Shown: positions 5,419-28,565 of the stretch, one piece after another | How the letters are laid out: the number at the start of each line of letters is the position of its first letter | Position numbering within the stretch: position 1 is the stretch's first letter | The notes under the pieces: generated by a model | What the model was told of the DNA's origin: nothing | Databases searched by the model: none | The model's input: only the letters and a program-made list of their open reading frames with translations | Translations under genes and position numbers: made by a program | Origin: Candidatus Levybacteria bacterium RIFCSPLOWO2_01_FULL_38_21 | GTDB lineage: Bacteria > Patescibacteriota > Microgenomatia > Levybacterales > UBA12049 | NCBI GenBank assembly: GCA_001782475.1 | Contig: MFOT01000008.1 | Span: 1 to 53,296, forward strand | Reading direction: 5' to 3' | Length of the DNA stretch: 53,296 nucleotides

Positions 5419-5455
5419 ACCCTTCGATAAAACTCAGGGTCCTGAGCTTGTCGAA
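5419..5455. repeat. Family C palindromic element (ACCCT-TCGATAAAACTC-AGGGT plus CCTGAGCTTGTCGAA arm), intergenic copy
   Basis: Direct reading. Shares the CCCTTCG...GCTCAGGG core with copies at 18018, 23898 and 28541. Confidence 0.75.
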
Positions 5456-5487
5456 TGGAGATATTCGAATTTAGAATTTGTCTAAGA

Positions 5488-5496
5488 AGTATACCA
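5488..5496 (-). promoter_or_regulatory. Extended -10 (TGGTATACT) candidate promoter for fusA
   Basis: Minus strand reads TGG-TATACT. It would give a leader of about 150 nt containing the family C element and AAATCCTAAATA repeats. Confidence 0.35.
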
Positions 5497-5521
5497 CATT
5501 TTACCCAGCTTGACTACACAA

Positions 5522-5530
5522 TGGTATAAT
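5522..5530 (+). promoter_or_regulatory. Extended -10 (TGGTATAAT) promoter of the alpha/beta hydrolase gene
   Basis: TGG-TATAAT at 5522-5530, then 6 nt to the ATG at 5537. Confidence 0.5.
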
Positions 5531-5536
5531 TGCATT

Positions 5537-6262
5537 ATGAAATCTGAATCGGTAAGGATAAAGGGAAACGAATACTCCCTTTCGGGAACGCTTATTAAGC
5601 CTGAAAACGGAGAAAAAGTCCCTGCAGTCGTTTTCTATCATGGTATGATAAGCCAAAGCAAACCAAGATATATAAGACGGGCTGAAAAATTAGCAAGAAT
5701 TGGAATCGGTTCTTTGTGTTTTGATTTCAGAGGTTGTGGGGAAAGTGATGGAAAACTTGGTAAGTTGTCTCTCTCCGATTGGTTTTCTGATGCATTAATT
5801 GCCTTTGACTATCTTTTCAAGCAAAATTTTGTTGATAAAGATAGAGTCGGAATTGCAGGAAAAAGTCTCGGCGGATGCATGGGCACCCTTGTGTCTGATA
5901 AGAGAAATGTAAAATCAATGGTTCTCCAAGCCCCAGCGGTCTACCCGGATGAATGGTTTAATGAGAAATATACTTGGGGTGAGAAACTAAGTAAACGAAG
6001 ATTGGAATACAGAAAATCAAAAAAAGCACTTGATAATAGTACGATCAGAGCAATTGAAAAATTCAAAAATCCATTATTAATAGTAGGAAGCGAGCTTGAC
6101 GATACCTGCCCCAAAAAAGTAGTTGAGGGGTATTTTGAAAAAGCCGGATCAAAAAATAAAAAACTCGAGTGGATAAAAGGTGCCGATCATTCTCTCAAAA
6201 ATGAAATCCATAACCAACAATACATAAGATTAATGACTGACTGGTTCTCAAAAACCTTATAA
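5537..6262 (+). CDS. Alpha/beta hydrolase (dienelactone hydrolase / S9-like)
   Basis: GKSLGG nucleophile elbow, acidic ELDD and a C-terminal GADHSL His. Start moved to ATG 5537 because the track's TTG at 5510 lies upstream of the -10 box. Confidence 0.75.
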   Translation: MKSESVRIKGNEYSLSGTLIKPENGEKVPAVVFYHGMISQSKPRYIRRAEKLARIGIGSLCFDFRGCGESDGKLGKLSLSDWFSDALIAFDYLFKQNFVDKDRVGIAGKSLGGCMGTLVSDKRNVKSMVLQAPAVYPDEWFNEKYTWGEKLSKRRLEYRKSKKALDNSTIRAIEKFKNPLLIVGSELDDTCPKKVVEGYFEKAGSKNKKLEWIKGADHSLKNEIHNQQYIRLMTDWFSKTL

Positions 6263-6277
6263 ATTTTAATTTGACAC

Positions 6278-6306
6278 TTGACAAATCTTACGTAATTACG
6301 TAAAAT
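6278..6306 (+). promoter_or_regulatory. Promoter plus palindromic operator of the phd/relE pair
   Basis: TTGACA (6278-6283), 17 nt spacer, TAAAAT (6301-6306). The perfect 16-bp palindrome TTACGTAATTACGTAA (6288-6303) fills the spacer and overlaps the -10. The ATG is 6 nt after the -10. Confidence 0.6.
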
Positions 6307-6312
6307 ATTTTT

Positions 6313-6576: not shown

Positions 6577-6827
6577 TGACCAAAGTTAATTTTACCCCTA
6601 ACTCTTTAAAACACTTCAAAAAAATAAAAGATAAGAAAATAAAAGCAAAAATTAAAACGGGATTTTTAAAACTTTCTCAAAATTCTTATCTTGGAAAAAA
6701 ATTAGAAGGGGAATTTCAAGGTCAATATTCTCTTCGCGTCTGGCCTTATAGAATTGTGTACTACATCACTGAAAAAAAGGATATCATAATTACCGACATC
6801 GGCCACCGAAAAGAAATTTATCGATAA
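6576..6827 (+). CDS. RelE/ParE-family toxin (mRNA interferase)
   Basis: 83 aa with C-terminal YRIVYYI....IIITDIGHRKEIY, the RelE/ParE signature. Confidence 0.8.
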   Translation: MTKVNFTPNSLKHFKKIKDKKIKAKIKTGFLKLSQNSYLGKKLEGEFQGQYSLRVWPYRIVYYITEKKDIIITDIGHRKEIYR

Positions 6828-9097: not shown

Positions 9098-12000
9098 CCC
9101 CGCCGTTGGCGGGGTCAACTCCGATTTCATCGGACTCAACGGGAATAAGACGCCCAATAATTACATTTTCTTTAAGGCCGATAAGCTTATCCTCTTGTCC
9201 CTGAAGAACTGCTTCGGTAAGAACTTTGGTGGTTTCCTGAAAGGACGCGGCTGAAAGCCATGAATCAGAAAACAGAGAAGACTTAGTAATTCCTACTAAT
9301 ATTTGTCTCGCTGTTGCCGGTTCACCTCCCTGGGAAAGTATTCCGGCATTTATTTCTTCAAACTTAACTTTTGTTATAATATCCCCCGGGATCAAAGAAG
9401 TATTCCCAACTGTTTCTACAACAACTTTATCCGACATCTTCCTAAGAATTACTTCAAAATGTTTATCATTTATTGTTATCCCCTGTGATTCATAAACCCG
9501 CTGAGCCTCTCTAATAATATAGCGTTGCGCTTCAAGAATTCCCTTTATCTTTAGGATGTCTTTTGGGTCAATGTATCCTTGGGCAAGTTGGGTTCCTGAG
9601 GAAATCATATCCCCGTTGGAAACTGCAATTTCAGATGCTAGGGGTACAAAATACTCTTTCTCTTCCGGCGGTTTTACCCTTGCGTTTCTTATCCTTATGA
9701 TGTAACCATCCTCTGTTTTTTCGACCTTTACTTTTCCTGATATATTCGACATTGGAGCAAGGTTTTTTGGTGTCCTCATCTCAAATAGCTCCTCAACTCT
9801 TGGTAAACCTTGAGTAACATCAGACATCACGACCCCCCCAAAATGTCTGACTCTCATTGTAAGCTGTGTCCCGGGCTCTCCAATAGATTGCGCTGCAATC
9901 ACACCAACCGGAACTCCAACTTTTACTTTTCTTTTTGTCGAGAAGTCCCAGCCATAACAAGCGGCGCAAACTCCATATTCCATATTGCAGGTTAAAGGAG
10001 ATCTAACGTTTACTTCCTCAACCTCGTTTTCCAAAAGAAGTTTAAGCTTTTCTTCACCTATCTCCTCTCCCTCTCTTATTATCGGTTTTTTACTCTTTTT
10101 AGATACTATATTTGATGTAGTAGTTCGTCCTAAGATTCTGTCAAAAAATGTAGTTGTTCTGTCTATATCATCTTGTGCAATTAGAATTCCTTCTTTTACC
10201 CCACAATCCTCACCTCTTATAATTATATCGTGGGACACATCAACAAGTCTTCTTGTAAGATAACCTGCATTTGCGGTTTTCAATGCAGAGTCTGTTAATC
10301 CTTTTCGTGAACCGCGGGCTGACGCAACATATTCAAAAATCGAAAGTCCTTCTCTAAAATTTGATTTTATAGGAAGTTCAACAATTTTTCCAAGCGGATC
10401 TAAAATAAGCCCTCTAATTGCCGAAAGTTGCTTTACTTGCTCTTTTCCAGCTCGGGCTCCCTCGGAATCTATAATTACTTTTATTGGATTCTCAGGTTTT
10501 AATATCGACCATGTCTTGTTTGCTAGATCATCCGTTGCTTTAAGCCAAACTTCGTTTTCAAGTCTTTTTCTCTCTTCATTTGTTACAAGACCTTGCTGGT
10601 ATTCCGCTTCAATTTCTGTTATCTTCTTCTCGGCACTCTCAATAAGATTTTCTTTGTCCTCGACCATCTCATTGTCAAAGACCGAAACAGAAACCCCTGA
10701 AATTGTTGCACCGTAAAACCCTAAAGTTTTTATATTGTCGATAATTTTTTCTACCTCCTCCGCAGTTGAATTTGAAATTGCGTAGGTTATTATTCTTTTA
10801 ATACCGGACGCTTTAACTTGTTCATTGATGAATCCTAGAGATTGCGGAATTTGTTCATTAAAAAGTACTCTTCCAACTGTTGTTTCTATTATCTTATTAT
10901 CAACTCTTACTTTAATCGGTTCTCTAAACTTAATCTTTGAAAGAGATTGAGCAAGAATAGCTTCTTGAGTAGATTCAAAAACAGGCTGGATTTCCCTTCT
11001 TAAGCTCTCGTCTATGCTTGTTAGATAAAAAACTCCGACTGCCATCTCTTTATTCGGGAGTGTAATCGGACCTCCGTCAGCCGGCTTTAGAAGATTGTGT
11101 CTTGGCATCATAAGATTTATGGCTTCTTCTTTTGCAATATTAGATAAAGGAATATGAACTGCCATCTGATCTCCGTCGAAATCTGCATTATAACCTGCGC
11201 AAACGCATGGATGAAGGCTTATAGCAGACCCCTCAATCAAAACCGGATAAAAAGACTGTATTCCAAGTTTATGAAGCGTTGGAGCACGGTTTAATAAAAC
11301 TGGATGGTTTTTTGTTATTTCTTCCAAGATATCGAATACCTCTGCTGGTCTTTTTTCGATAAATCTTTTTGCAGATTTAATATTTGGGGCATATCCTCTT
11401 ATTATAACCTCTCTTAAAACAAATGGCTTAAACATTTCAAGTGCCATTTCTTTTGGAAGACCACACTGGGAAAGATCAAGTTGAGGACCAACAACAATAA
11501 CTGATCTTCCCGAATAGTCCACTCTTTTTCCCAAAAGATTTTGCCTAAATCTTCCCTGTTTTCCCCTAAGCATATCTGAAAGTGACCGCAGGGGTGAGGA
11601 AATAACTTGAGTAGTCCTCTGAGATACATCAATTAGAGCATCTACAGATTCCTGAAGCATTCTTTTTTCATTTCTTAAAATTATCTCAGGAGCTCCCAAA
11701 GACATCAAGTGTTTTAATCTGTTGTTTCTGTTAATTACTCTTCTGTATAAATCGTTAAGATCAGAGGTTGCAAATCTTCCTCCTGCAAGCTGAACCATTG
11801 GCCGCAAATCCGGAGGAAGAACAGGTAAAACCGTAATAATCATAGACAAAGGAGACACTCCAGCTTTGCGCATGGATTCAATAAGTCGTAGTCTCTTTAT
11901 AAGCTTTAGGTACTTTTGCCCTTTAGATTTCTCCGCTTCGCTTCTAAGCTTTATAATTAAATCTGATAGATCGATCTTACCAAGAAGCTCCAAAATTCCC

Positions 12001-12818
12001 TCTGCTCCTGTTCGCATTGAAAAAAAAACGGGAATATCGTATTCCAAAATTTTAAAGTATTCATCCTCCGAAAGCACTGTACCAATCCTTAAGTTTTTAA
12101 GAAGGTGAGACAAAGCTTCATAAATTTCATCAAGCTTTTTCTCTTCCTCTACAAGTCTTTCCGAAAGAGCTGCAATTTTTTGTCTTTGGACAAGCTCCAA
12201 TTCCTGATAAACAAGGTCTTTTTGCACTTTTGCAAGTTTCCCTTTTCTCACTTCATTCTTCTTCTCTTTAATTTCGCGCTCAATTTCTTTTTCCGCAAGA
12301 ACTATTTCATCTCTTTGCTGTTTTTTTCTTGTCTCAATATTTTTAAGGAATAAATCAAGTGCTTCCTTTTTCTTATTTTCATCTATATCTATTACCAAAA
12401 ATGATGCATAATAGATTACAGATTCAAGATTTCTCTGAGACATGTCCAAAATTAAAGAAAGGGGGGAAGTCGAACCTTTAAAGAACCACACATGGGCAAC
12501 TGGAGAGGCAAGGTTTATATGACCCATTCTTTCTCTTCTTACCCTTGATGTTGTAACCTCTACTCCACATTTATCACAGATAACGCCTCTGTGTCTTATT
12601 CTTTTGTATTTTCCACAATAACATTCCCAGTCTTTTGTAGGACCGAAGATTCTTTCGTCAAAAAGTCCATCCTTCTCCGGCCTTAGGGTTCTATAGTTAA
12701 TTGTCTCAGGCTTTGTTACCTCACCATAAGACCAGGAAAGGATATCGTCTTTATTTGCAAGAACAATCCTTAAAGACTTAAAATCTAAAATTGTAATATC
12801 TTTCATTTTTTTATTCAT
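9090..12818 (-). CDS. rpoC: DNA-directed RNA polymerase subunit beta'
   Basis: 1242 aa with the NADFDGDQM catalytic motif and zinc-binding CxC..C..C near the N-terminus. 8-nt overlap with rpoB. Confidence 0.97.
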   Translation of the reverse strand: MNKKMKDITILDFKSLRIVLANKDDILSWSYGEVTKPETINYRTLRPEKDGLFDERIFGPTKDWECYCGKYKRIRHRGVICDKCGVEVTTSRVRRERMGHINLASPVAHVWFFKGSTSPLSLILDMSQRNLESVIYYASFLVIDIDENKKKEALDLFLKNIETRKKQQRDEIVLAEKEIEREIKEKKNEVRKGKLAKVQKDLVYQELELVQRQKIAALSERLVEEEKKLDEIYEALSHLLKNLRIGTVLSEDEYFKILEYDIPVFFSMRTGAEGILELLGKIDLSDLIIKLRSEAEKSKGQKYLKLIKRLRLIESMRKAGVSPLSMIITVLPVLPPDLRPMVQLAGGRFATSDLNDLYRRVINRNNRLKHLMSLGAPEIILRNEKRMLQESVDALIDVSQRTTQVISSPLRSLSDMLRGKQGRFRQNLLGKRVDYSGRSVIVVGPQLDLSQCGLPKEMALEMFKPFVLREVIIRGYAPNIKSAKRFIEKRPAEVFDILEEITKNHPVLLNRAPTLHKLGIQSFYPVLIEGSAISLHPCVCAGYNADFDGDQMAVHIPLSNIAKEEAINLMMPRHNLLKPADGGPITLPNKEMAVGVFYLTSIDESLRREIQPVFESTQEAILAQSLSKIKFREPIKVRVDNKIIETTVGRVLFNEQIPQSLGFINEQVKASGIKRIITYAISNSTAEEVEKIIDNIKTLGFYGATISGVSVSVFDNEMVEDKENLIESAEKKITEIEAEYQQGLVTNEERKRLENEVWLKATDDLANKTWSILKPENPIKVIIDSEGARAGKEQVKQLSAIRGLILDPLGKIVELPIKSNFREGLSIFEYVASARGSRKGLTDSALKTANAGYLTRRLVDVSHDIIIRGEDCGVKEGILIAQDDIDRTTTFFDRILGRTTTSNIVSKKSKKPIIREGEEIGEEKLKLLLENEVEEVNVRSPLTCNMEYGVCAACYGWDFSTKRKVKVGVPVGVIAAQSIGEPGTQLTMRVRHFGGVVMSDVTQGLPRVEELFEMRTPKNLAPMSNISGKVKVEKTEDGYIIRIRNARVKPPEEKEYFVPLASEIAVSNGDMISSGTQLAQGYIDPKDILKIKGILEAQRYIIREAQRVYESQGITINDKHFEVILRKMSDKVVVETVGNTSLIPGDIITKVKFEEINAGILSQGGEPATARQILVGITKSSLFSDSWLSAASFQETTKVLTEAVLQGQEDKLIGLKENVIIGRLIPVESDEIGVDPANGGVE
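9097..9115. repeat. Family A hairpin ACCCCGCC-GTT-GGCGGGGT inside the last 9 codons of rpoC
   Basis: Perfect 8-bp stem read directly. Encodes ..DPANGGV.. of the rpoC C-terminus. Confidence 0.8.
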
Positions 12819-15800
12819 CTGTTTCTGTTTTTCCTTCCTCTCCCTTTCCGTCCGTCAGATGGGCTACAGGCAAGTCCTCCATTGGTTTTACCTCCTCTGT
12901 AACCTCGGGAAGTGCAACATTGACAGATTGAGGAGTATCAACTGTTGCGCCATGGGCTATAACATTTATCCCAAGTGCTGCAAGTTCTTTTATTAAAACT
13001 CTAAATGACTCCGGAACTTTCGGAGTTGGAATATCTGTCCCTTTAACAATTGCCTCGAATGCTTTTGCTCTTCCAACAACGTCGTCTGATTTGATAGTTA
13101 ACATTTCCTGTAAGATATGTTTTGCCCTATGAGCTTCAAGTGCCCAAACCTCCATTTCTCCCAAGCGCTGTCCTCCCATTTGAGCCTTTCCCCCCAATGG
13201 CTGTTGGGTTACTAAAGAGTAAGGACCCGTGGATCTAGCATGTGTTTTATCTTCAACCATATGAATAAGTTTCATAATATATTCAACTCCTACAACAACA
13301 GGGTTCTCATAGGCCTCTCCTGTTCTACCATCATATAAAACCGTTTTTCCGCTCTCGGGAAGTTTTGCCATTCTAAGAAAAGACACAATTTTATCTTCAG
13401 CAACTTCTTCAAATACTGGAATCACAACTTTTGTGTTTAGTTTTGTTGCAGCCCAACCAAGATGTGCTTCTAAAAGCTGACCTAAATTCATACGAGCAAG
13501 AACACTTATTGGAGAAATAATGATATCAACTGGTGTTCCTTCGGAGAGCCATGGCATATCTTCTTGCGGAAGAATTCTAGAGATAACACCTTTGTTTCCA
13601 TGTCTTCCCGCAAGCTTATCTCCAACTGTAACGTGTCTAAATTGTGCTACTTCTATAATTATTTTTTTAATAGTTCCTGGCTCTAACTCGTCTCCCTTTT
13701 TTCTGTCCAAAATCCGAATATTAATAACCGTGCCGCGCTCTCCATTTGGAACTCGGAGAGACGTATCTCTTACCTCTCTTGCTTGTTCTCCAAAGATTGC
13801 CCGAAGAAGTCTTTCCTCGGCTGTTAATTCTGTTTCACCTTTCGGTGCTATTTTCCCAACGAGTATATCTCCAGGTCCGACTTCGCTTCCAATAACAACT
13901 ATTCCTTCTTCATCAAGATTTGCCAAATCTTCTTCTGAGACATTTGGAATATCCCGAGTTGTTTCTTCGGGCCCCAACTTTGTATCAACAACTGCCGCCT
14001 CATATTTCCCTATATGAATAGAGGAAAGAATATCCTCTTTAACAAGTCTATCCGAAATAACTATCGCATCTTCGTAACCTAAACCGTCCAAGGAAGCATA
14101 GGCTATAAGCAAATTCTTTCCAAGGGCAAGTTCTCCATTGTCGGATGCAGGACCATCTATTATAAGATCTCCTTTTTTAACTTTTTGCTTGGGTATAACC
14201 ATTGTTTTTTGAGTATAGGAAGTAGCCTGCGAACTTCTTTTGAAAGAATTTACTTTATAAACTAATTCCTTACCGCCTTTTTCCGCCTTTAAAATAACTT
14301 TATTTGCGTCAGCATATTTAATTGTTCCATCATATGGAGCTGTGACAACTCTCCCCATAACTTCTGCAATATCTTTCTCCATTCCTGTTTCAACAAAGGG
14401 ACTTTCTAAATTCACAAGAGGCACTGCCTGACACTGCATGTGGGTTCCCATTAGAGCTCTATTTGCCTCATCGTGACTTACAAATGGAATAAGGGATGCT
14501 GCCGAGCCAACAACCTGACGGGGAACAATATCCACATACTCTATTTTTTCTTTTTCTGTTTCTATAAACTCTCCTTTAAATCTCGCAGGAACACGATCTT
14601 CTTCTATTATTCCGTCTTTTGAAACCATGGCTGCATGAGTGATATAATGATTCTGTTCATCGTCCGCTGTTAGGTAAACAATTTCATCTGTTGCGCGGAC
14701 CGCAGTCTTTTTTCCTCTTTTTTTAAGCTGAACTACCCTTCTATATGGCGTTTCTAAAAATCCGAACTCATTAACCTTTGCATAAAGGGCAATATAAGTA
14801 ACAAGACCAATGTTTGGACCTTCTGGGCTTCTAATCGGGCAGATCCTCCCGTATTGAGAACTATTAATATCGCGAATTGAAAAAGCTGCTCTTTCTCTTG
14901 AAATTCCTCCTGTTCCCATAACAGTTAGACGGTTAAGATTGTCTATTTCAGAAAGCGGATTGGTCTGATCTAAAATAGTAGAGAGCTGAGAAGTCCTAAA
15001 GAATTCATTAATTGATGCCATAATAGGTCTTGCATTTATTAATGGCCCAATCGAAACTGGAACATCGGGCTGAATAAGACTCATTCTCTCCTTAATGCTT
15101 CGTTCAAGTCTTAGTATTCCAACCCTAAATGCATTGGTTGCAACAAGCTCTCCAACGCGCCTCACACGTCTGTTTGCAAGACTATCTATATCATCAATTC
15201 CATCTTTGCCTTGAGCAAGCTCTATTAGAAAACCTATAGTCGCAGTTATGTCATCTACTGTTAAAACTCTTTCTTCAGACGATGTGAAACCCGGAGTATC
15301 TTTAAGCTTTTTATTGATTTTGTATCTCCCAACCTGCCCTAAATCGTATCTTCTGTTGTTGAAAAACATTCCAAAAAAACTTTCTTTTACTTTGTCTAAA
15401 ACAATTGGTTCTCCGGGATGCATTTTCTTAAAAATTTCAAATAAAGCCTCTTGAAAATCTGATGTTTCATCTTTTTTAAGAGTGTTATCTATAAAAGAGG
15501 TCTTTCCATCCCCTTCTAATTCTTTAAATTTTTCTCTTATATCCTCGTTTGAGGAAACTCCCAAAGCTCTTAAAAATGTTGTTGCCAAAAACTTTCTTCT
15601 CCTATCTATTCTTACAGTTATTGTCTCGTGTCTTGTTGTAGAAAATTCAAGCCAGGAGCCGTGAACTGGTCTTATTTCGGCAGTATATATTTTTTTACCT
15701 GTAATATTATCTTGAACAACTGTAAAAAACACTCCGGGAGATCTTACAAGCTGATTAACAATAGTTCTTTCAACGCCATTTATTACAAAAGTTTTCCTTT

Positions 15801-16164
15801 CTGTCATTTGAGGAATATCTCCCAGGAATACTTCCTGTTTTATAGTTTTACTGATTTTTTTGTTAAGAAGAACAGCATCTACATACAATGGGGCATCGTA
15901 TGTTAGCCCCTTGCTCATCGAAACTTCCGAAGAGTTGGCAGGTTTTCCAATGCGATAATTGTTAAATGTGAGAGTCCAGTTTTTTCCTGTGAAGTCATCA
16001 ATTGGAGAGATTTCTTTTAGAATCTCTCCAATTCCTTCTTCGAGGAACCATTTGTATGATTCTTTTTGAACGGCAAGTAAATCTAGTTTAGGCAGAAACT
16101 TATAGTCATTACCCCAGTTCTCTCGCTGTCTATTTGATAAAGTTTTTTTGTCAGCTTTAGGCAT
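12811..16164 (-). CDS. rpoB: DNA-directed RNA polymerase subunit beta
   Basis: 1117 aa with typical beta-subunit blocks (GRHGNKGV, MNLGQ, GGQRLGEMEVWALE). Confidence 0.97.
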   Translation of the reverse strand: MPKADKKTLSNRQRENWGNDYKFLPKLDLLAVQKESYKWFLEEGIGEILKEISPIDDFTGKNWTLTFNNYRIGKPANSSEVSMSKGLTYDAPLYVDAVLLNKKISKTIKQEVFLGDIPQMTERKTFVINGVERTIVNQLVRSPGVFFTVVQDNITGKKIYTAEIRPVHGSWLEFSTTRHETITVRIDRRRKFLATTFLRALGVSSNEDIREKFKELEGDGKTSFIDNTLKKDETSDFQEALFEIFKKMHPGEPIVLDKVKESFFGMFFNNRRYDLGQVGRYKINKKLKDTPGFTSSEERVLTVDDITATIGFLIELAQGKDGIDDIDSLANRRVRRVGELVATNAFRVGILRLERSIKERMSLIQPDVPVSIGPLINARPIMASINEFFRTSQLSTILDQTNPLSEIDNLNRLTVMGTGGISRERAAFSIRDINSSQYGRICPIRSPEGPNIGLVTYIALYAKVNEFGFLETPYRRVVQLKKRGKKTAVRATDEIVYLTADDEQNHYITHAAMVSKDGIIEEDRVPARFKGEFIETEKEKIEYVDIVPRQVVGSAASLIPFVSHDEANRALMGTHMQCQAVPLVNLESPFVETGMEKDIAEVMGRVVTAPYDGTIKYADANKVILKAEKGGKELVYKVNSFKRSSQATSYTQKTMVIPKQKVKKGDLIIDGPASDNGELALGKNLLIAYASLDGLGYEDAIVISDRLVKEDILSSIHIGKYEAAVVDTKLGPEETTRDIPNVSEEDLANLDEEGIVVIGSEVGPGDILVGKIAPKGETELTAEERLLRAIFGEQAREVRDTSLRVPNGERGTVINIRILDRKKGDELEPGTIKKIIIEVAQFRHVTVGDKLAGRHGNKGVISRILPQEDMPWLSEGTPVDIIISPISVLARMNLGQLLEAHLGWAATKLNTKVVIPVFEEVAEDKIVSFLRMAKLPESGKTVLYDGRTGEAYENPVVVGVEYIMKLIHMVEDKTHARSTGPYSLVTQQPLGGKAQMGGQRLGEMEVWALEAHRAKHILQEMLTIKSDDVVGRAKAFEAIVKGTDIPTPKVPESFRVLIKELAALGINVIAHGATVDTPQSVNVALPEVTEEVKPMEDLPVAHLTDGKGEEGKTETDE

Positions 16165-17207: not shown

Positions 17208-17606
17208 CTACACTTCTTCTATTATAGAATAGGCAATTTGTCTGGTTCTTGGACCATTTAATTCAACAAGAATCACTCTCTGCCAAGTACCCAAAGATAA
17301 AGACTTATTTTCAAAAACCAAAGATAGTGACGCCCCAATAATCGATGAGAGAATGTGATCGGGCGTATGAGACGGATCATGGGGATGACGGTAGGAAATT
17401 TTTGGTATCATTTTGCGAAAAGCTTCGAGAAGATCTAAATCTGTTCCGGGATCCAAATCTGCAGTAGTCAGTCCGCAGGTTGTGTGAAGAAGTGAAAGAA
17501 AGCAAATCCCGTTTTTTTTATTGGATTTTTTTATAACTTCATTTACTTTATCTGTTATGTCTAAAATCTGATCTTTTTTAAAAGTTTTTACTTCAAAGTC
17601 GCTCAT
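17208..17606 (-). CDS. YjbQ/UPF0047-family protein (secondary thiamine-phosphate synthase fold)
   Basis: 132 aa with the HTTCGLTTADLDPG...HPHDPSHTPDHI...GTWQ pattern typical of YjbQ. ATGA overlap with the upstream gene. Confidence 0.8.
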   Translation of the reverse strand: MSDFEVKTFKKDQILDITDKVNEVIKKSNKKNGICFLSLLHTTCGLTTADLDPGTDLDLLEAFRKMIPKISYRHPHDPSHTPDHILSSIIGASLSLVFENKSLSLGTWQRVILVELNGPRTRQIAYSIIEEV

Positions 17607-18847
17607 ATATTTATAGACTGAAGTCGTCTTAAAGCCTTTTCCTTATCAAAAGGGTTAATTTTTGATTTTTTAACTGCTTTTTCTAAAATATTGATAGTAT
17701 TGTCATACGTTTTCACATCAACAGAATATGGAATTGCGTCTTTTCCACCGTGAGCAAAACTGTATCTTGCCGGATCCTCATACGAAGGGCCTGCTCCATA
17801 GATGATTTCTGAGACTAGTGATAGCGCTCGTATTGTTTTAGGCCCTACTCCCTCAATTGATAATAAACTTTCATAATCCTCTGGCTTCTCATATGTTACT
17901 CTTTGAAGAATTCTTTCAAGATACTTACTTTTTGTAAAGTCTTCATAAACTACCGGATGAGTTGTAAAATGAGGATCGTTTAATTTGAGAAAAGTAAGTT
18001 GCTCATCCTTTTTGGAAGCTTGCCCTGAGCGAAGCCGAAGGGAGATCATTTTTGAATATCTTGAAAAGTGGCTCCTTAAAAGCTGTATGTCCTTCATCAA
18101 GGTGTTGTAGCTTGAAGCTGCGAGCTCTCTTGATATCTCTTTGTTTTTTCTACTTTTCTTATCAACAAGGTTTAAAACATTTTTCTTAAATACTTGAGAA
18201 GCAATTCCCGCGTGCGGTTCTTCAACAAAATCCTTCTTGTGATTTGTTATTTGTGATTTGTTATTTGTGATTTCTAGCTCATCATACCAGTGGTATCTTC
18301 TAGCAGTCGCATTTGACGTATTCATTCCTTGCTGAACAACCGCCCAACTGTCAATAAGAGAAGACGCTCTTGAAGTTTTTTTGACGGAGGAAAAGAATGC
18401 ATGATGATAAATTTGGTATCCGTCCTGAACTAAACTTGAATCAACTTTTGCTGCCATTTTTGAACTGTATGATAAGTCTTTAAGTTTCTTCTCCTCAAGA
18501 TTTAATCTTTCTCCCCAGTTTAAAATCTCATCGGGAGTTTTTAGTGAAGTTCTTCCTTTTCCTCCACAAATAAAAACTCCCAAATTTTCTTCTTCTCCTC
18601 TTATTGCTTCCTTTAAAGCTGCGGTCAATATCGTTGTAAGACCTGAGGCATTCCAGTCAAATGCAAGAACCATTCCAAGGCTCTGAAACCAAACCGGGTC
18701 TGCAATTCTTTTTAGAAATTCTGCTGCCCCATATTCATCTACTAAAACTCTAACTATTTCTCGTCCTAAAGCCACCATTCTACGAAAAAGCCATGGAGGG
18801 CACTTACCATAATCTAATGTGAAGGTAGCAATTCCTCTTCTCATCAC
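17603..18847 (-). CDS. DUF763-family protein with a helix-hairpin-helix-like segment
   Basis: 414 aa. The N-terminus ATFTLDYGKCPPWLF..DPVWFQSLG..FDWNASGLTT matches my memory of DUF763; IEGVGPKTIRAL is HhH-like. Carries a low-complexity insertion. Confidence 0.7.
   Translation of the reverse strand: MMRRGIATFTLDYGKCPPWLFRRMVALGREIVRVLVDEYGAAEFLKRIADPVWFQSLGMVLAFDWNASGLTTILTAALKEAIRGEEENLGVFICGGKGRTSLKTPDEILNWGERLNLEEKKLKDLSYSSKMAAKVDSSLVQDGYQIYHHAFFSSVKKTSRASSLIDSWAVVQQGMNTSNATARRYHWYDELEITNNKSQITNHKKDFVEEPHAGIASQVFKKNVLNLVDKKSRKNKEISRELAASSYNTLMKDIQLLRSHFSRYSKMISLRLRSGQASKKDEQLTFLKLNDPHFTTHPVVYEDFTKSKYLERILQRVTYEKPEDYESLLSIEGVGPKTIRALSLVSEIIYGAGPSYEDPARYSFAHGGKDAIPYSVDVKTYDNTINILEKAVKKSKINPFDKEKALRRLQSINI
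18018..18044. repeat. Family C element, in-frame copy inside the DUF763 gene
   Basis: The reverse complement reads CTCCCTTCGGCTTCGCTCAGGGCAAGC. Translated in frame as SLRLRSGQAS. Confidence 0.75.
18238..18273. repeat. 2.6 copies of a 14-nt tandem repeat (TGTGATTTGTTATT) inside the DUF763 gene
   Basis: Direct reading; total 36 nt so the frame is kept. Encodes ITNNKSQITNHK. Confidence 0.85.
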
Positions 18848-22212: not shown

Positions 22213-24075
22213 ATGAAGGCTTCGGAAATAATAAAAAAATACATTAGTTTTTTTGAAAAACGCGGACATAAGAGAATTGTAAACTCTCCTCTTATCCCTC
22301 AAAACGATCCGACTACTCTCTTTACATCCTCGGGTATGCAGCCTTTGGTCCAGTATTTTTTGGGAGAATCGCACCCTTTAGGAAAAAGGCTTGTAAATGT
22401 TCAGAATTGTTTTAGAGCAGCCGACATTGATGAAGCTGGAGACAATAGGCATACTACTTTTTTTAGAATGCTTGGCAATTGGTCATTGGGAGATTATTTT
22501 AAAAGAGAACAATTGCCATGGTTTTTTGAATTCTTAACAGATGTTCTTAAGCTAGATCCTAAAAGATTATATGTAAGTATCTTCAGTGGATATAATAGTA
22601 TTCCCCGTGATAATGAATCCGCAAGAATTTGGAAAAAATTATTTGAGGATCTTGGAATAGACCCAAAAGATAAAATCTTTTATTATGGTGTTGATAAAAA
22701 TTGGTGGTCGCGAGCGGGTCTTCCTCAGGACATGCCAAAAGGTGAACCCGGCGGACCAGACAGTGAGGTTTTTTATGATCTGGGAACTGCCCATAATAAA
22801 AAATTTGGGAATAAGTGTCACCCGAATTGCCAATGCGGCAGATTCTTGGAAATTGGAAACTCCGTATTTATGGAATACCAGAAGACCGAAGATGGTTTTA
22901 AACCACTGCCGAATAAAAACGTAGATTTCGGCGGAGGTCTTGAGAGACTTTTAGCGGCGGTTGAAAATCAGAACGACATTTTTCAAACAAGTTTATATAG
23001 TCCAATTGTTTCGGCAATAGAAAAGACAACCGGAAGTTCTTACAAAGAAAACTCTCGAGCAATACGAATCATCGTCGATCATTTTGTTGCAGCAGTTTTT
23101 ATAGTAAAAAGTGGTGTTTCTCCATCGAATAAAGAACAGGGGTATGTCCTTCGTCGCTTAGTGAGGAGAGCTTTTGACAATATTAATTCTATAAGAGAAA
23201 TCGAAAATATGGTTGTCTCTACCAAAACGGTAGTTGAATCAATTATTTCTCAATATAAAACTACAGATCCGGATCTTGTACAAAATTTTGAAAGAATAGT
23301 AAGCACAATTTTGGAAGAGATCAATAAATACAGATTTACAATTAATAAGGCGCGAAGTTTTATTCAAAAAAAATATCCACAGATAGGAGACGAACTTAAG
23401 GGAGTTAAAAAAATATCCATAGATGATGCATTTATTCTTTACTCAACCCACGGACTTTCTCCTACCCAAATAAAAAGTCTGGGATATGTTTTTAGCGTGA
23501 GGGAATTTGCAAAAAAAATGGAAGAACACCAACGAGTTTCAAGGAAAGGGGCGCAGGGGAAATTCGCAGGAGGACTTGTGGACCATAGTGATCAAACAAT
23601 AATAGGACATACTGCAACACATCTCATGCACCAGGCCTTACGAGATGTTTTGGGAAATAAAGTTTTTCAAACAGGATCAAATATTACAAGTGAAAGGATA
23701 AGATTTGATTTTTCTTATGATAAGAAATTAACCAATGAAGAAATTTCAAAAGTTGAGAAAATAGTAAATGAAAAGATTGAGAAAAATTTGCCTGTTCATT
23801 TTGAAATAATGCCGCTTAAAAAAGCAAAAGAAATAGGAGCAATCGGACTTTTTAACGAAAAATATGAAGGTAAAGTTAAAGTATATTTTATTGGAGGTCC
23901 TTCGACTCACTCTGTTCGCTCAGGGCAACCTCATACGCAAGCGTACTCGGTTGAATTTTGCGGAGGACCCCATGTTGATTTTACAGGAAAGCTAAAAAGG
24001 TTTAAGATAATAAGGCAGGAAAACATAGGACATAGCCAAAGAAGAATCTATGCCAAAGTTGGCGCTTTTTTATGA
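22213..24075 (+). CDS. alaS: Alanine--tRNA ligase, short form (catalytic plus editing domains, no C-Ala domain)
   Basis: 620 aa. N-terminal class II AlaRS blocks (FTSSGMQP, RHTTFFRMLGNWS) and editing-site HTATHLMH and CGGPHV motifs. The ORF ends soon after. Confidence 0.9.
   Translation: MKASEIIKKYISFFEKRGHKRIVNSPLIPQNDPTTLFTSSGMQPLVQYFLGESHPLGKRLVNVQNCFRAADIDEAGDNRHTTFFRMLGNWSLGDYFKREQLPWFFEFLTDVLKLDPKRLYVSIFSGYNSIPRDNESARIWKKLFEDLGIDPKDKIFYYGVDKNWWSRAGLPQDMPKGEPGGPDSEVFYDLGTAHNKKFGNKCHPNCQCGRFLEIGNSVFMEYQKTEDGFKPLPNKNVDFGGGLERLLAAVENQNDIFQTSLYSPIVSAIEKTTGSSYKENSRAIRIIVDHFVAAVFIVKSGVSPSNKEQGYVLRRLVRRAFDNINSIREIENMVVSTKTVVESIISQYKTTDPDLVQNFERIVSTILEEINKYRFTINKARSFIQKKYPQIGDELKGVKKISIDDAFILYSTHGLSPTQIKSLGYVFSVREFAKKMEEHQRVSRKGAQGKFAGGLVDHSDQTIIGHTATHLMHQALRDVLGNKVFQTGSNITSERIRFDFSYDKKLTNEEISKVEKIVNEKIEKNLPVHFEIMPLKKAKEIGAIGLFNEKYEGKVKVYFIGGPSTHSVRSGQPHTQAYSVEFCGGPHVDFTGKLKRFKIIRQENIGHSQRRIYAKVGAFL
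23898..23930. repeat. Family C element, in-frame copy inside alaS
   Basis: TCCTTCGACTCACTCTGTTCGCTCAGGGCAACC, translated GPSTHSVRSGQP. Lies directly upstream of the CGGPHV editing-site motif. Confidence 0.7.
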
Positions 24076-26366
24076 AACTTCCCCTTCTTCCGTTTCTTGA
24101 AAAAAAAGAGAGTAGGGAATATTTTTTAGCCCTAGTTCTTCGAAACGAAAAGGTAAATGCGGTATTCTTTGAAGAATCTTTGGGAAAAGTCAGTGTTTTG
24201 GGAAAACACAGCGAATATTTTGAAAATTCAATCGAGCAAGTCTCTTTAGAAGAGCTGTTAGGCATTTTGGATAAAGCAATTTCAACTGCCGAGCAGTCGC
24301 TTCCTGAAAATGTCGAGACAGTCAAAACAATCTTTGGAGTAAAAGGAAGCTGGGTTGAGGATAACAAAATAAAAAAAGATTATCTCTTAAAGCTTAAAAG
24401 GATAAGCGATGAGCTGGGACTTGTTCCGATAGGTTTTTTAGTTGCATTTGAAGCAATTGTACATCTTCTGCAAAAAGAGGAGGGCGCACCAGTCACTGCA
24501 ATTTTAGTCGAAACAGGAGAAAAATATGTTTCTGTAGCACATATTAAAGCAGGCAAAATTATAGAATCAAAAACATCGGAGATTATTGAGTCCCCCGCTC
24601 AAACAGTTGATAATCTTTTAAAACATTTTTCTTCTTCGGAGATTTTACCATCCAGAATTATTATTTTCAACGGCGATGAGGATGAAAGTCAGGAATTTAT
24701 AAATCACAGATGGAGTAAAAGTTTACCTTTTCTTCACCTTCCTCAGGCAACAACACTTCCTTTTGAATTTGACTCTGGAGCAGTTCTTTTTGGAGCGGCA
24801 CAACAGATGGGTTTTGAAGTTTTGGAAGATGGGATTTCGGAAATACCACCTGATAGCCTCGCGCTTGGCGGAGCTGGGAAAAAGGAAGAAATCCAAAAGA
24901 CGGAAGGAAAAAAAGAACTTGAAGATGAAGCAGTAACAGACAAGATTAAAAAAATTCCCGATGAAACTTCCGCAGAATACTTTGGTTTTGCAGAAGGTAA
25001 GGATATTTTAAAAGAACCTTTGCCAAAAGAGAAGATTCCGCAGGACATCGGACAAAAAGAGCTAAAGGAAAAAATTGAAGACCTGCCTGCCGGCAAGGCA
25101 GGAATACCGGAAGAACTTCCCCTTCCCTTAAACGCTCTAATGATTTTAGATGGATTAAAAAGTGTATCTGAAAAATTATTGAATATTCTAAAAAAACTTT
25201 CAACAGAAAAACTTGCCACGGGAATTCTAAGAGGTGGAAAAGGGATAATTATACCTGCGGTTTTAATTTTTTTAATTTTTATTCTTGCCATTGTCTATTT
25301 ATTTACAAATAAAGCTTCTGTTGTTTTAAATATTGATGGGAAAACAACAGATAAAACCCAAAATGTAACTTTTTCCCAAAAGCCTACAGATCCTCTAAAA
25401 AATATTATTCAGGGAGAATTTGTTTCTGTTTCCGAAGATGGAACTATCTCTACTCAATCAACTGGCAAAAAAGAAGTCGGTACAAATGCAAAAGGAACAG
25501 TAACTGTCTTTAATAATGCTCCCTCCTCTCAAACATTATCTAAGGAAACTACCATAACATCCTCAAACGGTCTTGATTTCACTTTGGACAAAAGCGTCAC
25601 TGTTTCTTCCGCATCGGGCGATATCTTTTCGGGTACCACACCTGGAAAAACAAGCGTTTCCGCAACTGCAAAACAAATTGGACAAGAATACAACCTCCCT
25701 TCTAATACGAAGTTTTCTATTTTGGGAAGTACTACAATGGCTGCAAAAAATGATAATCCTTTTTCCGGTGGAACAAAAAAAGAAATAACTGTTGTTTCAA
25801 AAGATGATATAGCAAAACTTCTCGAAGATCTTCCCAAAAACCTAGAACAAAAGGCGAAAGACGATCTTTCTAAGAAAGTCTCGGATGATAAGGTTTTGCT
25901 TCCTGTATTTATAAGTAGAACTATTAGTAAAAAAGATTTTGACAAAGATACAGGTGATGAAGCAAAACAAGTAACGCTTAAAGGGTCTGTTAATTTTGGA
26001 GGAATCGCTTATAAAAAAAGTGACAGTACTAGTTTTGCAAACGAGCTTTTGAAAACGAGTATCTCAGCCGATCTGACTGTTGATCCAAATAATATAAAAA
26101 TCAAGGTTAAAGATATAAAAGAAAATAAGAATAAAGAAGTAAATACAAATATAACCATAGTAGGAACTCTTGTTCCAAAGATTGATGAGGAAAAACTTTC
26201 AAAACAGATTTCCGGAAAGTCTTTTAAAAAAGCCGAAGAGATTCTAGAAAGACTTCCGCAGGTTTCTGGTGTAGATATTAATCTTTCTTTTAACATTCCG
26301 TTTTTCCCAAAGCGACTTCCCTTTTCGTCAAAAAATGTAAAAATTACAACTAAAATAAATGGGTAA
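24072..26366 (+). CDS. Bitopic membrane protein: actin-like (FtsA/PilM-type) N-terminal domain, charged linker, one TM, then an extracellular S/T/K-rich domain of about 350 aa
   Basis: The N-terminal block LGLVPIGFLVAFEAIVHLL..APVTAILVETGEKYVSVAHIKAGKI resembles the FtsA/PilM ATPase core. TM segment IIIPAVLIFLIFILAIVYLF. ATGA overlap with alaS and 8-nt overlap with the sortase gene. Confidence 0.45.
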   Translation: MKLPLLPFLEKKESREYFLALVLRNEKVNAVFFEESLGKVSVLGKHSEYFENSIEQVSLEELLGILDKAISTAEQSLPENVETVKTIFGVKGSWVEDNKIKKDYLLKLKRISDELGLVPIGFLVAFEAIVHLLQKEEGAPVTAILVETGEKYVSVAHIKAGKIIESKTSEIIESPAQTVDNLLKHFSSSEILPSRIIIFNGDEDESQEFINHRWSKSLPFLHLPQATTLPFEFDSGAVLFGAAQQMGFEVLEDGISEIPPDSLALGGAGKKEEIQKTEGKKELEDEAVTDKIKKIPDETSAEYFGFAEGKDILKEPLPKEKIPQDIGQKELKEKIEDLPAGKAGIPEELPLPLNALMILDGLKSVSEKLLNILKKLSTEKLATGILRGGKGIIIPAVLIFLIFILAIVYLFTNKASVVLNIDGKTTDKTQNVTFSQKPTDPLKNIIQGEFVSVSEDGTISTQSTGKKEVGTNAKGTVTVFNNAPSSQTLSKETTITSSNGLDFTLDKSVTVSSASGDIFSGTTPGKTSVSATAKQIGQEYNLPSNTKFSILGSTTMAAKNDNPFSGGTKKEITVVSKDDIAKLLEDLPKNLEQKAKDDLSKKVSDDKVLLPVFISRTISKKDFDKDTGDEAKQVTLKGSVNFGGIAYKKSDSTSFANELLKTSISADLTVDPNNIKIKVKDIKENKNKEVNTNITIVGTLVPKIDEEKLSKQISGKSFKKAEEILERLPQVSGVDINLSFNIPFFPKRLPFSSKNVKITTKING
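25082..25102. repeat. Family B palindrome (CCTGCCTGCCGGCAAGGCAGG), in-frame copy
   Basis: Encodes LPAGKAG in the linker of the 764-aa protein. Related to the exact copies at 29993 and 44778. Confidence 0.75.
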
Positions 26367-27090
26367 ATACTATTACAAAAAGGCGGATAAATTTTTTAGA
26401 AAAACGAGGTTACGCCTATTAAGCCTTTTAATTCTTTTTGTTGGGGTGGTCATTGTTTTATATATATTTTTTCCTCTGATTTCATGGCAGATTTATTTTG
26501 CACCAGCTCTTGCATCATCTAGCATACAGACTCCCATCCCAAAATCAATGGTTATTAATCCGTCTACTATTGGGAGCTTAATCTCTCAAGCAGAAAATTC
26601 ACTCTCGGGAGTCGATTATACAAACGCCAAAAACTGGTTTCCGGGATTTAATCCCGCTCATCCTAAACAGCCAAAAATTCCATCTTATACGATTTCGATT
26701 CCGAAGCTTAAAATTAACAATGCTACAGTGTCAACACGCGATAATAACCTGGCAATTCATCTTGTTAATTATCAAAATACCGCTATTCCGCCGGAGTCGG
26801 GAAATGCTGTAATTTTTGGACATTCAACCCTGCCCCAGCTTTTTAATCCAAACGATTATAAGACTATTTTTGCCACTGCATATCAGCTAAGGGCAGGAGA
26901 TGAAATATATGCAAATGTAAACGGCATTTCTGTCAGATATAGAGTTTTTAATATTAGTGTCGTTGAACCGACAAATATATCTATTTTTGAACAAGACTAC
27001 AGCAATTCATATCTAACGCTTGTTACCTGTACCCCTCCCGGAACAACCTGGAAAAGACTGATTATAAAAGCAAGGTTTGAGAAAATTTAA
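26359..27090 (+). CDS. Sortase-family transpeptidase
   Basis: N-terminal TM anchor, catalytic His (IFGHSTL), the TLVTC Cys motif, and a downstream Arg. Confidence 0.85.
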   Translation: MGKYYYKKADKFFRKTRLRLLSLLILFVGVVIVLYIFFPLISWQIYFAPALASSSIQTPIPKSMVINPSTIGSLISQAENSLSGVDYTNAKNWFPGFNPAHPKQPKIPSYTISIPKLKINNATVSTRDNNLAIHLVNYQNTAIPPESGNAVIFGHSTLPQLFNPNDYKTIFATAYQLRAGDEIYANVNGISVRYRVFNISVVEPTNISIFEQDYSNSYLTLVTCTPPGTTWKRLIIKARFEKI

Positions 27091-27352
27091 AAATGGAAGA
27101 AGAAAATAAGTTTAAAACTATTTTAACTAAAATTTGGCCAACGATCTATAGAATAATAAATTCATTTATCTACTTTATACTCTCTGTTATTAAATCTATA
27201 GTATCAATTGCTATAAATCAAATAAAAGGGGGAAAAGACATATAAGAAGGGGCATCTTTAAAAGCGAAGAGGAAAAGCTTCGAAAAGCACTTGAAGCAAT
27301 CCAAAAAAAACTTGTTGGTAAAACACTCACTTACAAGGAAATCTATGCTGTA

Positions 27353-28543
27353 ATGGATGAGATCGCAAGAAATAGACTTGGGGACGTTTTAACTACTTAT
27401 TTTGCTGCATCCGGATACTCTAAGGGGTTTACTAATAAAGAACTTTATTATCTAACCCGCGCTATGGTAGACACAGGAAAACATCTTAAATTTCCCGGAA
27501 TTGTTGCCGACAAACATTCAATTGGAGGAGTTCCGGGAACAAGAACGACCCTAATAGTTGTACCCATAGTAGCTGCTGCAGGGTTTACTATTCCAAAAAG
27601 CTCATCTCGGGCAATAACTACTCCCGATGGAACAGCTGACGATATGGAAGTACTAGCGCCCGTTGTGCTTCCCAAAGATAAAATTTATAAAATTGTGGAA
27701 AAGACGAACGGGTGTATTGTGTGGGGAGCAAGTTTCGGCATAGCCCCTGCAGATGATGTGATAATAAATGTAGAAAAGCCTCTTCTTTTTGAAAGCTATG
27801 ACAAAATCCTGGTTTCTATAATGGCAAAGAAGGTTGCTTTTTCCTCAAATCATGTTGTAATTGATCTTCCTTACGGAAAGATGGTAAAAGTTCATAGAAT
27901 AAAGGATGCAGAAATTCTAAAAGGGAAATTTGAATATCTTGCCCGAAAGTTTAAAATCCGAATAAAGGTTCTAATTCACAAAACAGATGAGCCGGCAGGA
28001 AGAGGAATTGGTCCAATCTTAGAAACTCGCGAGGCATTAAGAGTTCTCCAGCAAAAATCAAATAGACCACTAGATCTTGAGCAAAGGAGTCTTCATATTG
28101 CAACTGAACTCCTAAGGCTTTGCTTAAAAGATTCCGATAGGCAGCTTAAAGAAATTGTTAAGAAAAATTATGGAACCTGCGCCAATTGGGCAAAAAAAAT
28201 ACTAAAAAACGGCGGGGCCTTTTTAAAAATGCAGGAAATAATTAAAGAACAGGGCGGAAACCCAAACATAGATAGCGAGGATTTAAAACCGGGAAAGTTT
28301 TTATTTAGAATAAAATCTGTCAAGAACGGAGTTGCAAAAAGGATAAACAGTAGGAATCTTACAATAATCGGAAAACTTTTAGGCGCTCCAAATCAAAAAG
28401 GGTCAGGGATTTACCTAAACAAGAAAATTGGCGAAAAAGTTGCGAAAAATGATACAATCTGTACATTATACAGCGAAAGTATGTATAATCTTAAAAACGG
28501 AAAAAGTTCGAAAGAACGTTTTCCGATAATAACAGTAGCATGA
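27353..28543 (+). CDS. deoA: AMP phosphorylase / thymidine phosphorylase-family enzyme (archaeal DeoA-type); N-terminal boundary uncertain
   Basis: DKHSIGGVPGTRTTLIVVPIVAAAGFTIPKSSSRAITTPDGTAD and APADD blocks closely resemble archaeal AMP phosphorylase. Similarity appears to continue upstream of ATG 27353; an in-frame TTG lies at 27290. Confidence 0.8.
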   Translation: MDEIARNRLGDVLTTYFAASGYSKGFTNKELYYLTRAMVDTGKHLKFPGIVADKHSIGGVPGTRTTLIVVPIVAAAGFTIPKSSSRAITTPDGTADDMEVLAPVVLPKDKIYKIVEKTNGCIVWGASFGIAPADDVIINVEKPLLFESYDKILVSIMAKKVAFSSNHVVIDLPYGKMVKVHRIKDAEILKGKFEYLARKFKIRIKVLIHKTDEPAGRGIGPILETREALRVLQQKSNRPLDLEQRSLHIATELLRLCLKDSDRQLKEIVKKNYGTCANWAKKILKNGGAFLKMQEIIKEQGGNPNIDSEDLKPGKFLFRIKSVKNGVAKRINSRNLTIIGKLLGAPNQKGSGIYLNKKIGEKVAKNDTICTLYSESMYNLKNGKSSKERFPIITVA

Positions 28544-28565
28544 CCCTTCGGCAAGCTCAGGGTCA
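28541..28565. repeat. Family C element, intergenic hairpin TGACCCT-N11-AGGGTCA starting in the deoA stop codon
   Basis: 7-bp perfect stem read directly. Core CCCTTCGGCAAGCTCAGGG. Confidence 0.8.

Follow-up and report, generated by a model that had tools for sequence, protein, structure and literature searches.

The 53,296-nucleotide contig MFOT01000008.1 of Candidatus Levybacteria bacterium RIFCSPLOWO2_01_FULL_38_21 (referred to below, at its full length, as the window) carries a short GC-rich hairpin repeat at four places, two of them between genes and two in frame inside the genes for alanyl-tRNA synthetase (AlaRS, alaS) and a DUF763 protein. These are probably solo copies of a pan-bacterial hairpin repeat that is spread in trans by a GIY-YIG nuclease, its units being built as a variable closing stem of at least 3 bp around a conserved 13-nt loop. 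The element is a sequence and structure variant of a kind of repeat published in 2025 (Chenal et al. 2025, Nat Commun 16:2388, PMC11893778) and behaves like the Rickettsia palindromic elements (RPEs); it is not a peculiarity of the Candidate Phyla Radiation (CPR). The initial annotation, made from the letters of the window alone, had likened the repeat to RPEs, mobile hairpins which are tolerated as in-frame peptides, and empty sites together with presence and absence among orthologues agree with this. A family specific to CPR-type genomes is contradicted by the occurrence of the exact 19-mer core in many bacterial phyla and in viral contigs.

The pattern CCTTCG-N(2-25)-CTCAGG matches the window four times, at 5421-5438(+), 18024-18041(-), 23899-23924(+) and 28545-28561(+), against 0.13 matches expected, and none of 100 shuffled sequences reaches four. 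A scan for hairpin units with a closing stem of at least 3 bp likewise returns four against 0.15 expected. All four copies that had been proposed are thus borne out by pattern matches and by the Pfam assignment of their host genes, and the GC-richness ascribed to the element is real, as its core has 68% GC in a window of about 37%. A covariance model built from 67 units, none of them from the window (model R1), has as its five best matches five units of the window, two each in copies 1 and 4 and one in DUF763, and finds nothing else that is credible. A partial copy had also been proposed at 37824-37837; it is unsupported, comprising just the heptamer CCCTTCG, which occurs eight times against 4.4 expected, and the covariance model misses the site. 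A gene for a YafQ-type toxin (37880-38137) adjoins this place.

The best-preserved hairpin is unit 4a (28540-28566(+), ATGACCC-TTCGGCAAGCTCA-GGGTCAT, the window form written as an oligonucleotide being ATGACCC-TGAGCTTGCCGAA-GGGTCAT), which has one mismatch to the canonical 19-mer CCCTTCGRCAAGCTCAGGG and is found by model R1 at 28539-28567(-) with 29.6 bits and an E-value of 6e-6. As had been read from the sequence, it is a hairpin with 7-bp arms, ATGACCC and GGGTCAT, the left of which holds the stop codon TGA (28541-28543) of a pyrimidine-nucleoside-phosphorylase-like gene, deoA (27353-28543(+)). The position given earlier for this fourth copy holds, and the copy extends into a second, degenerate inverted unit, 4b (28561-28588(+), GGTCATAC-TGAGTAAAATCGAA-GTATGA), with a 6-bp stem in the hairpin-unit scan and a match to model R1 at 28561-28590(+) (12.2 bits, E 0.56). 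The two units have the arm TCATACT in common, and unit 4b carries a GTCAT tag and holds in its right arm the start codon (28585-28587) of yceG (28585-29541(+), assigned as YceG by Pfam). One unit with the same arms as unit 4b is present in an unrelated contig (L043). The first copy was also placed correctly; it is an inverted dimer of 5420-5458, a 39-nt palindrome in the spacer between the divergent genes for elongation factor EF-G (fusA, 3184-5331(-)) and an alpha/beta-hydrolase. Its left half, unit 1a (5420-5439(+), CCC-TTCGATAAAACTCA-GGG, a pattern match), has an AT-rich 14-nt loop and, in the hairpin-unit scan, a 4-bp closing stem, and is found by model R1 at 5415-5444(-) with 16.1 bits and E 0.043. 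The other half, unit 1b (5440-5458(-), CCATTCGACAAGCTCAGGA on the minus strand), has two mismatches to the canonical 19-mer and is found at 5435-5464(+) with 16.7 bits and E 0.028.

Unit 2 (18023-18042(-), CCC-TTCGGCTTCGCTCA-GGG followed by CAAGC) lies in sense orientation inside the DUF763 gene (17603-18847(-)) and is found by model R1 at 18018-18047 with 11.4 bits and E 0.94. In alaS (22213-24075(+)), alignment with orthologues delimits an in-frame insert of 45 nt (23899-23943(+)) which encodes residues 563-577, PSTHSVRSGQPHTQA, and contains the long-loop derivative CCTTCGAC-TCACTCTGTTCG-CTCAGGG-CAA at 23899-23928(+). It accounts for the roughly 15 extra residues before the zinc motif that the initial annotation had described. 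The translations given there for the two coding copies, SLRLRSGQAS in DUF763 and GGPSTHSVRSGQPHTQAYSVEFCGGPHV in alaS, are likewise correct, both reading RSGQ from CGCTCAGGGCAA. The coding copies have lost their fold and the intergenic ones keep it: the units between genes fold better than shuffled sequences (z -2.3 to -4.3), the copy 1 dimer reaching -18.1 / -18.5 kcal/mol with z -2.3 / -4.3 and unit 4a z -2.9 / -3.3, whereas the two copies inside genes do no better than shuffles (z +0.5 and -0.3).

A collection holding one genome per species has the exact 19-mer in at least 120 stretches, and the matches listed there represent at least 18 phyla, cultured isolates included; viral contigs likewise have it in at least 120 stretches. 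By chance about ten matches would be expected in the whole one-genome-per-species collection, a figure which is the author's rough estimate and not a computed control. The matches listed come from Bacteroidota, Cyanobacteriota, alpha-, beta- and gamma-Pseudomonadota, Actinomycetota isolates and several CPR groups, as well as from Nitrospirota, Myxococcota, NC10, Planctomycetota, Acidobacteriota, Armatimonadota, Chloroflexota, Eremiobacterota and Verrucomicrobiota. The 19-mer is usually followed on its right by CGAACGG, TGACAA, CAGGCTC or ACCG. About 75% of copies are intergenic, and they show no bias in their orientation relative to neighbouring genes, which speaks for an element that acts at the level of DNA; a function at the transcript level was rejected on the same observation. 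The core is open in five of its six reading frames, which encode PFDKLR, PSTSSG, LRQAQ, PELVEG and LSLSK. Literature searches for the DNA core and for the peptides derived from it returned nothing relevant.

What is conserved in the family is a 13-nt loop, TGAGCYTGYCGAA (TTCGRCARGCTCA on the opposite strand). In 107 of the 150 units that lack the CCC/GGG triplet the closing positions are nevertheless fully Watson-Crick paired, with about 1.6% expected by chance, the alternatives including GGC/GCC, TGG/CCA, TGC/GCA and TCC/GGA, so that the element amounts to a hairpin whose loop is conserved and whose stem is free in sequence but paired. A long variable stem was considered and set aside in favour of a short covarying one, as pairing beyond the closing triplet barely exceeds that of shuffled flanks. 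The element is not a long palindrome; its hairpin is short, and the 3 bp that close it covary. The closing triplet has the tetranucleotide GTCA in front of it in 49 units out of 430 in the family (written as an oligonucleotide, GTCACCC-TGAGCTTGTCGAA-GGGTG) and also in window unit 4b (GGTCATAC); the other window units and most of the family have GTTCG, CTCA or CTTG as tag. In 1.04 Mb of DNA from CPR relatives model R1 finds 18 matches of at least 17 bits, nine of them inside alaS, a count that is inflated because every locus scanned was centred on alaS. The simple pattern matches the same DNA 15 times against about 1.2 in shuffles.

Other arrangements of the motif are found in the same family. 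Runs of half-motifs, [CCTTCGA]n and after it [GCTCAGG]n, are seen in L024 (3100-3260), L059 (7400-7520), L070 (2050-2700) and L082 and suggest nested copies, and whole units also occur in tandem arrays with fixed spacers. In a Staskawiczbacteria contig of the CPR (L010, 370-432) the canonical 19-mer abuts an apparent tRNA 3' end with the T-arm-like sequence GGGTTCAAATCCCGA. A permissive Rfam scan of eight motif-rich loci gave just sub-threshold matches to RF02901 (Aggregatibacter sRNA 41), all of them on repeats; such matches lie on the repeat clusters L069 1427-1569, L024 3014-3203 and L105 591-748, and this Rfam family may have been built on such repeats. In the window itself there are no Rfam matches at gathering thresholds and no tRNA genes.

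Judged by comparison of sequences, the alaS, DUF763 and deoA/yceG copies are secondary insertions, in frame in the first two, because relatives have empty or differently occupied sites and distant DUF763 orthologues lack the insert. Copy 4 is present and identical in the relative L136 and absent from L122, L123, L154 and L167. The empty site of L122 is clean: the deoA TGA overlaps the yceG ATG (GTAGTATGAAAAG) in a 4-nt overlap, which the insertion has parted in such a way that each gene keeps its own stop or start codon. Alignment of the window with L136 and L122 defines an extra block of 28544-28588(+), made up of a 38-nt insert (28544-28581) and a second target heptamer, AGTATGA (28582-28588), the first heptamer reading AGCATGA in the window (28537-28543). 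The filled site is laid out as target heptamer (AGTATGA) - CCCTTCGGCAAGCTCAGGG - TCATACT - GAGTAAAATCGA - AGTATGA; the heptamer is present as a direct duplicate and in addition as an inverted copy, and makes up the arms of the hairpins. The GTAG beside copy 4 is host sequence, as it is also found in the empty site. DUF763 orthologues of less than about 70% identity mostly read SLK-x-GDEQLT and lack the insert, so that the clade of the window has about 8-10 extra residues relative to them. Separate lineages have LRSGRAL, RRSGQAL, SLQGHAL or ASQGQAL at this spot, and L121, a 79% relative, shares its decayed copy with the window.

Roughly one third of 120 aligned AlaRS orthologues, among them the closest one (79% identity), which reads YFINN-YSVEFCGG, have no insert between ..VKVYFIG and YS.EFCGGPH; the remainder have 8-30 residues there, rich in PST, SGQ or RSG. 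The alaS and DUF763 inserts are hence both variable among orthologues, as would be expected from the proposal that they are insertions. Among the relatives L121, L122, L134 and L136, all of about 79% nucleotide identity to the window, L121, L134 and L136 have no alaS insert, and L122 (11681-11709) has another hairpin variant at the same turn, TGG-TGAGCCCGCCGAA-CCA, which encodes GSAGSPQDA. The hairpins at this hot spot differ by paired changes of the closing stem (CCC/GGG, TCC/GGA, TGG/CCA). The initial annotation had named ancestral residues in distant orthologues as the alternative to insertion. This refuting condition is triggered in part, as AlaRS proteins of only about 50% identity carry PST.SG-type residues at the same spot; these residues are not ancestral protein, however, because at the DNA level they are distinct hairpin variants. 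Peptides derived from the element occur at four or more AlaRS positions among orthologues (about 192, 245, 345 and 540-560). In L167 two near-identical composites of about 80 nt, each of three nested hairpin types, lie at 9560-9660 and 10970-11070, one of them intergenic and the other inside alaS in antisense orientation, lengthening the protein by about 30 residues (..GDPEPVEGDS..). The Pfam tRNA_SAD domain on the window AlaRS spans 59 residues against 44 profile positions. Archaeal AlaRS structures align poorly across the insert, and an AlphaFold model was used instead (mean pLDDT 78), which puts the insert immediately ahead of the CGGPH zinc motif, with strand 554-560 on one side of it and strand 579-582 on the other. 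With pLDDT below 50 at residues 564-574, it is predicted to be a low-confidence loop between two strands, as the proposal of a surface insert would have it. The window AlaRS is 620 aa long and stops after the editing domain, without a C-Ala domain; its 120 closest orthologues are likewise short (596-658 aa), with the exception of P0004, which at 546 aa covers 72% of the query and looks partial.

A link to a nuclease emerged on searching from the nuclease side, after an unbiased neighbour search had given nothing: all-against-all comparison found no recurrent gene family within 2 kb of 137 copies, no dedicated search for RAYT, the transposase partner of repetitive extragenic palindromes (REPs), being part of it. 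A first strict GIY-YIG regular expression gave a single case, and only two GIY-YIG open reading frames (ORFs) are present in 240 motif-selected loci, both of which adjoin the motif. One of these genes, in L070, is enclosed by copies of opposite orientation, three of them upstream and at least three downstream. Motif-derived peptides are encoded in 39 of 120 homologues of its product, which are single-domain proteins of about 95-105 aa, compared with one of 120 AlaRS and six of 120 DUF763 proteins in the control sets. The peptides almost always sit at the extreme C-terminus (..RLAR..PSTSSG*, LRQAQ, FDKLRVT), a few being at the N-terminus (LSLSK). At the DNA level inverted copies flank the GIY-YIG gene in L070, L329, L334, L335 and L336; in Sphingomonas sp. 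KR3-1 (L334, 2954-3321), for example, ccgttcgcccTGAGCTTGTCGAAgggcg and cgcccTTCGACAAGCTCAgggcgaacgg lie on either side of the gene, between rnc and era. Related TGAGG..CTCGAA variants flank the gene in L332 and L337, and every R1 match in the bracketed loci falls within about 270 nt of the gene. The bracketing clade matches PF01541 alone in Pfam and nothing in NCBIfam. In two soil contigs the hairpin-GIY-YIG-hairpin units of L329 and L335 come just downstream of rpoB and, like that of L334, give the impression of insertions in conserved operons.

The same architecture has been published for the Ssn family of single-domain GIY-YIG enzymes (CDD cd10448), whose cuts in single-stranded DNA fall immediately upstream of their cognate hairpin repeat and which act on neither double-stranded DNA nor RNA (PMC11893778). 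The Neisseria repeat is NTS, CGTCATTCCCGCGMAVGCGGGAATCYRG, and its relatives elsewhere are named Ssn-related motifs (SRMs); repeats are found near 71% of Ssn homologues, in 42% on both sides, and the authors pointed out the architecture resembling an insertion sequence (IS) and the analogy to REP/RAYT (PMC11893778). Like SRMs and NTS, the present repeats are short (20-50 nt), numerous and mostly intergenic hairpins that occur in many phyla, including Sphingomonas and Devosia, which with Rickettsia are among the taxa described as repeat-rich (PMC11893778). Inverted copies on both sides of a gene for a single-domain GIY-YIG protein of about 95-105 aa are again found in the family, the window having no such gene. 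SRMs are oriented by a conserved, non-palindromic 5' tag, HGTCWY; a subset of the present units, window unit 4b among them, has GTCAY 5' of the hairpin. The two kinds differ in that here a covarying 3-bp stem closes a conserved 13-nt loop, where NTS has a conserved stem of about 7 bp and a loop of 3-4 nt. Most units are tagged otherwise, with GTTCG or CTCA, and the published SRM pattern, HGTCWYN(0-2)YYVSBRHN(0-5)WNVSBRGN(0-2)RNCYNB, finds none of the present copies, the NTS positive control being matched. Only 2% of NTS lie inside genes (PMC11893778), whereas here copies lie in frame in essential genes.

The most probable sequence of events, drawn largely by analogy, is that the hairpin forms in single-stranded DNA, where it would be the recognition site of a GIY-YIG nuclease, and that the copies would have been spread by that enzyme, whose gene would lie in another part of the genome or have since been lost, in the manner of RAYT transposases and their REPs. 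The insertions themselves are secondary in this lineage: one went into the 4-nt deoA/yceG overlap, one into the fusA spacer in the form of an inverted dimer, and others into surface turns of AlaRS and DUF763. Inserts of a length divisible by three that offer one of the five open frames to a permissive loop could survive as 8-16 extra residues and would then decay.

Several observations weigh against the spread of the window copies by such a nuclease. There is no GIY-YIG gene in the 53-kb window, and the mobilising enzyme of this lineage is for that reason put forward conditionally; mobilisation by an Ssn-type nuclease is putative, by analogy, for every member of the family. The GIY-YIG genes of CPR relatives (L145, L148/149) have no adjacent hairpin, and distant GIY-YIG relatives in viral contigs have none nearby. 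The best solved relatives of the bracketing nucleases are UPF0213 proteins (1zg2, 1ywl), and not one of 273 canonical copies, nor any site in the window, fits the published degenerate SRM pattern. Copies 2-4 are moreover identical in every same-species contig that reaches them (3 to 8 of the eight contigs in the set, each at least 99.9% identical to the window), and are therefore fixed, with no sign of current mobility. Lastly, one turn of AlaRS has been occupied repeatedly by different variants, which random insertion and selection alone do not explain. A bolder version of the proposal would take the hairpin as the end of an unrecognised class of GIY-YIG-driven mobile elements of single-stranded DNA. 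The solo copies would settle time and again in the same exposed turns of essential CPR genes, with the stem kept paired within coding sequence, as CCC/GGG, TCC/GGA and TGG/CCA at one AlaRS site suggest, and the coding copies being live targets of the nuclease; this is conceivable and rather doubtful. If it were true, coding copies could serve, for example, as marks by which essential genes are opened to or barred from recombination with single-stranded DNA that enters the cell.

The hairpin could alternatively have been derived in miniature from a conventional transposon, as a MITE (miniature inverted-repeat transposable element) of the DDE type or as a REP, and be moved by a transposase. The 7-bp direct duplication AGTATGA around copy 4, the inverted dimers at copies 1 and 4 and the dispersed, mostly intergenic and orientation-neutral distribution would all fit, and short extragenic hairpins that often form inverted dimers are typical of REPs and REPINs. 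As with REP and RAYT, the copies border a single-copy gene whose product would act on hairpins of single-stranded DNA, and mobilisation in trans is assumed for both. This explanation is nonetheless unlikely, since the 2-kb surroundings of the 137 copies hold no recurrent transposase or other neighbour family and the GIY-YIG clade is the sole recurrent partner found, which is a nuclease and not a Y1 transposase. The heptamer is also inverted inside the insert as hairpin arms, contrary to what a simple staggered-cut duplication predicts. As to a DDE-type MITE, one pair of filled and empty sites shows the 7-bp direct duplication, and no parent IS was seen. REPs have a conserved stem and a GTAG or CGTC tag (PMC3733652), whereas here the loop is conserved, the stem is free and there is no GTAG tag of the element's own. 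The hairpin motif is absent from the paper on GTAG/CGTC REPs (PMC3733652), and REP families are species-specific, unlike a core that is common to many phyla.

It is also quite unlikely that the hairpin benefits its host and is kept by selection, for example as an mRNA or DNA hairpin that adjusts the coupling of deoA and yceG or marks genes for or against recombination, with functional coding copies. In its favour, the hairpins between genes have a significantly better fold than shuffled sequences, the start codon of yceG is sequestered in unit 4b and the deoA stop codon lies in unit 4a, closing-stem changes at the AlaRS hot spot are paired, and the analogous repeats of Neisseria modulate transformation (PMC11893778). 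Against this, the coding copies of the window no longer fold, inserts are missing from many orthologues and copies across bacteria have no orientation bias relative to transcription. No window hairpin is followed by a uridine tract on its 3' side, and when the window is compared with L136, conservation around copy 4 is no higher than in the adjoining sequence.

Still less probable is a selfish palindrome of CPR genomes, RPE-like and lineage-specific, which would be unrelated to the nuclease-associated families. RPEs, which Ogata and co-workers are said to have described in 2000 as elements of about 100-150 bp, are reportedly confined to Rickettsiales. The likeness, compared by description, is considerable: both are selfish-looking palindromic DNA that sits between genes and in frame inside them, essential ones included, adds a surface peptide, is present or absent among orthologues and decays after insertion. 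The want of a partner gene in the window and of flanking copies at CPR GIY-YIG genes would also suit this explanation. The present element, however, measures 20-45 bp, is associated with a nuclease gene and has a 19-mer that recurs unchanged in viral contigs and in at least 18 phyla, and a model without any window sequence still finds the window copies. CPR, RPEs and in-frame inserts are not mentioned in PMC11893778; the RPE and SRM classes may nevertheless be linked, because that paper counts Rickettsia among the SRM-rich genomes. That there is no element at all, and that chance similarity or an ancestral hypervariable loop yields SGQ-rich peptides, including the similar residues in some distant AlaRS orthologues, is hardly credible in view of the shuffle controls, the clean empty site and the match of coding and intergenic copies to each other and to elements of other phyla at the DNA level.

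The window holds some further features beside the hairpins. A general inverted-repeat scan found nothing further for this hairpin family; a perfect 12-bp palindrome (43791-43815, between two minus-strand genes) and a perfect 13-bp hairpin (16000-16033, at the 5' end of the rpoB coding sequence) are unrelated to it. The rpoB gene (12811-16164) is a single gene of 1117 aa in other contigs of the species, and in the population contig L321 (12681-16034) it is represented by two gene calls of 996 and 114 aa. A 764-aa ORF within 24072-27090 overlaps the alaS stop codon by 4 nt and has a weak, Baseplate_J-like match as its sole match; after it, according to the same-species locus table, comes a sortase gene (Pfam PF04203).

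The significance of these hairpins stems from three things, namely a 13-nt loop that is exact across phyla, the association with a candidate single-strand nuclease and the colonisation of essential CPR genes. Common unnamed junk peptides of bacterial annotations (PFDKLRANG, PSTSSG, LRQAQGER, LSLSKG, RPELVEG) can be traced to a defined hairpin and a candidate enzyme, and the picture of Ssn enzymes and hairpin repeats drawn in 2025 gains a second hairpin design, which the published search pattern misses. If the link to the nuclease is true, a conserved 13-nt loop on a free stem would be a new specificity for single-strand-specific cutting of DNA. The hairpins reach even the reduced genomes of the CPR, where they lie in frame in essential genes such as alaS, with consequences for annotation, for alignments and phylogenies of CPR proteins and for estimates of how rich in inserts these proteins are.

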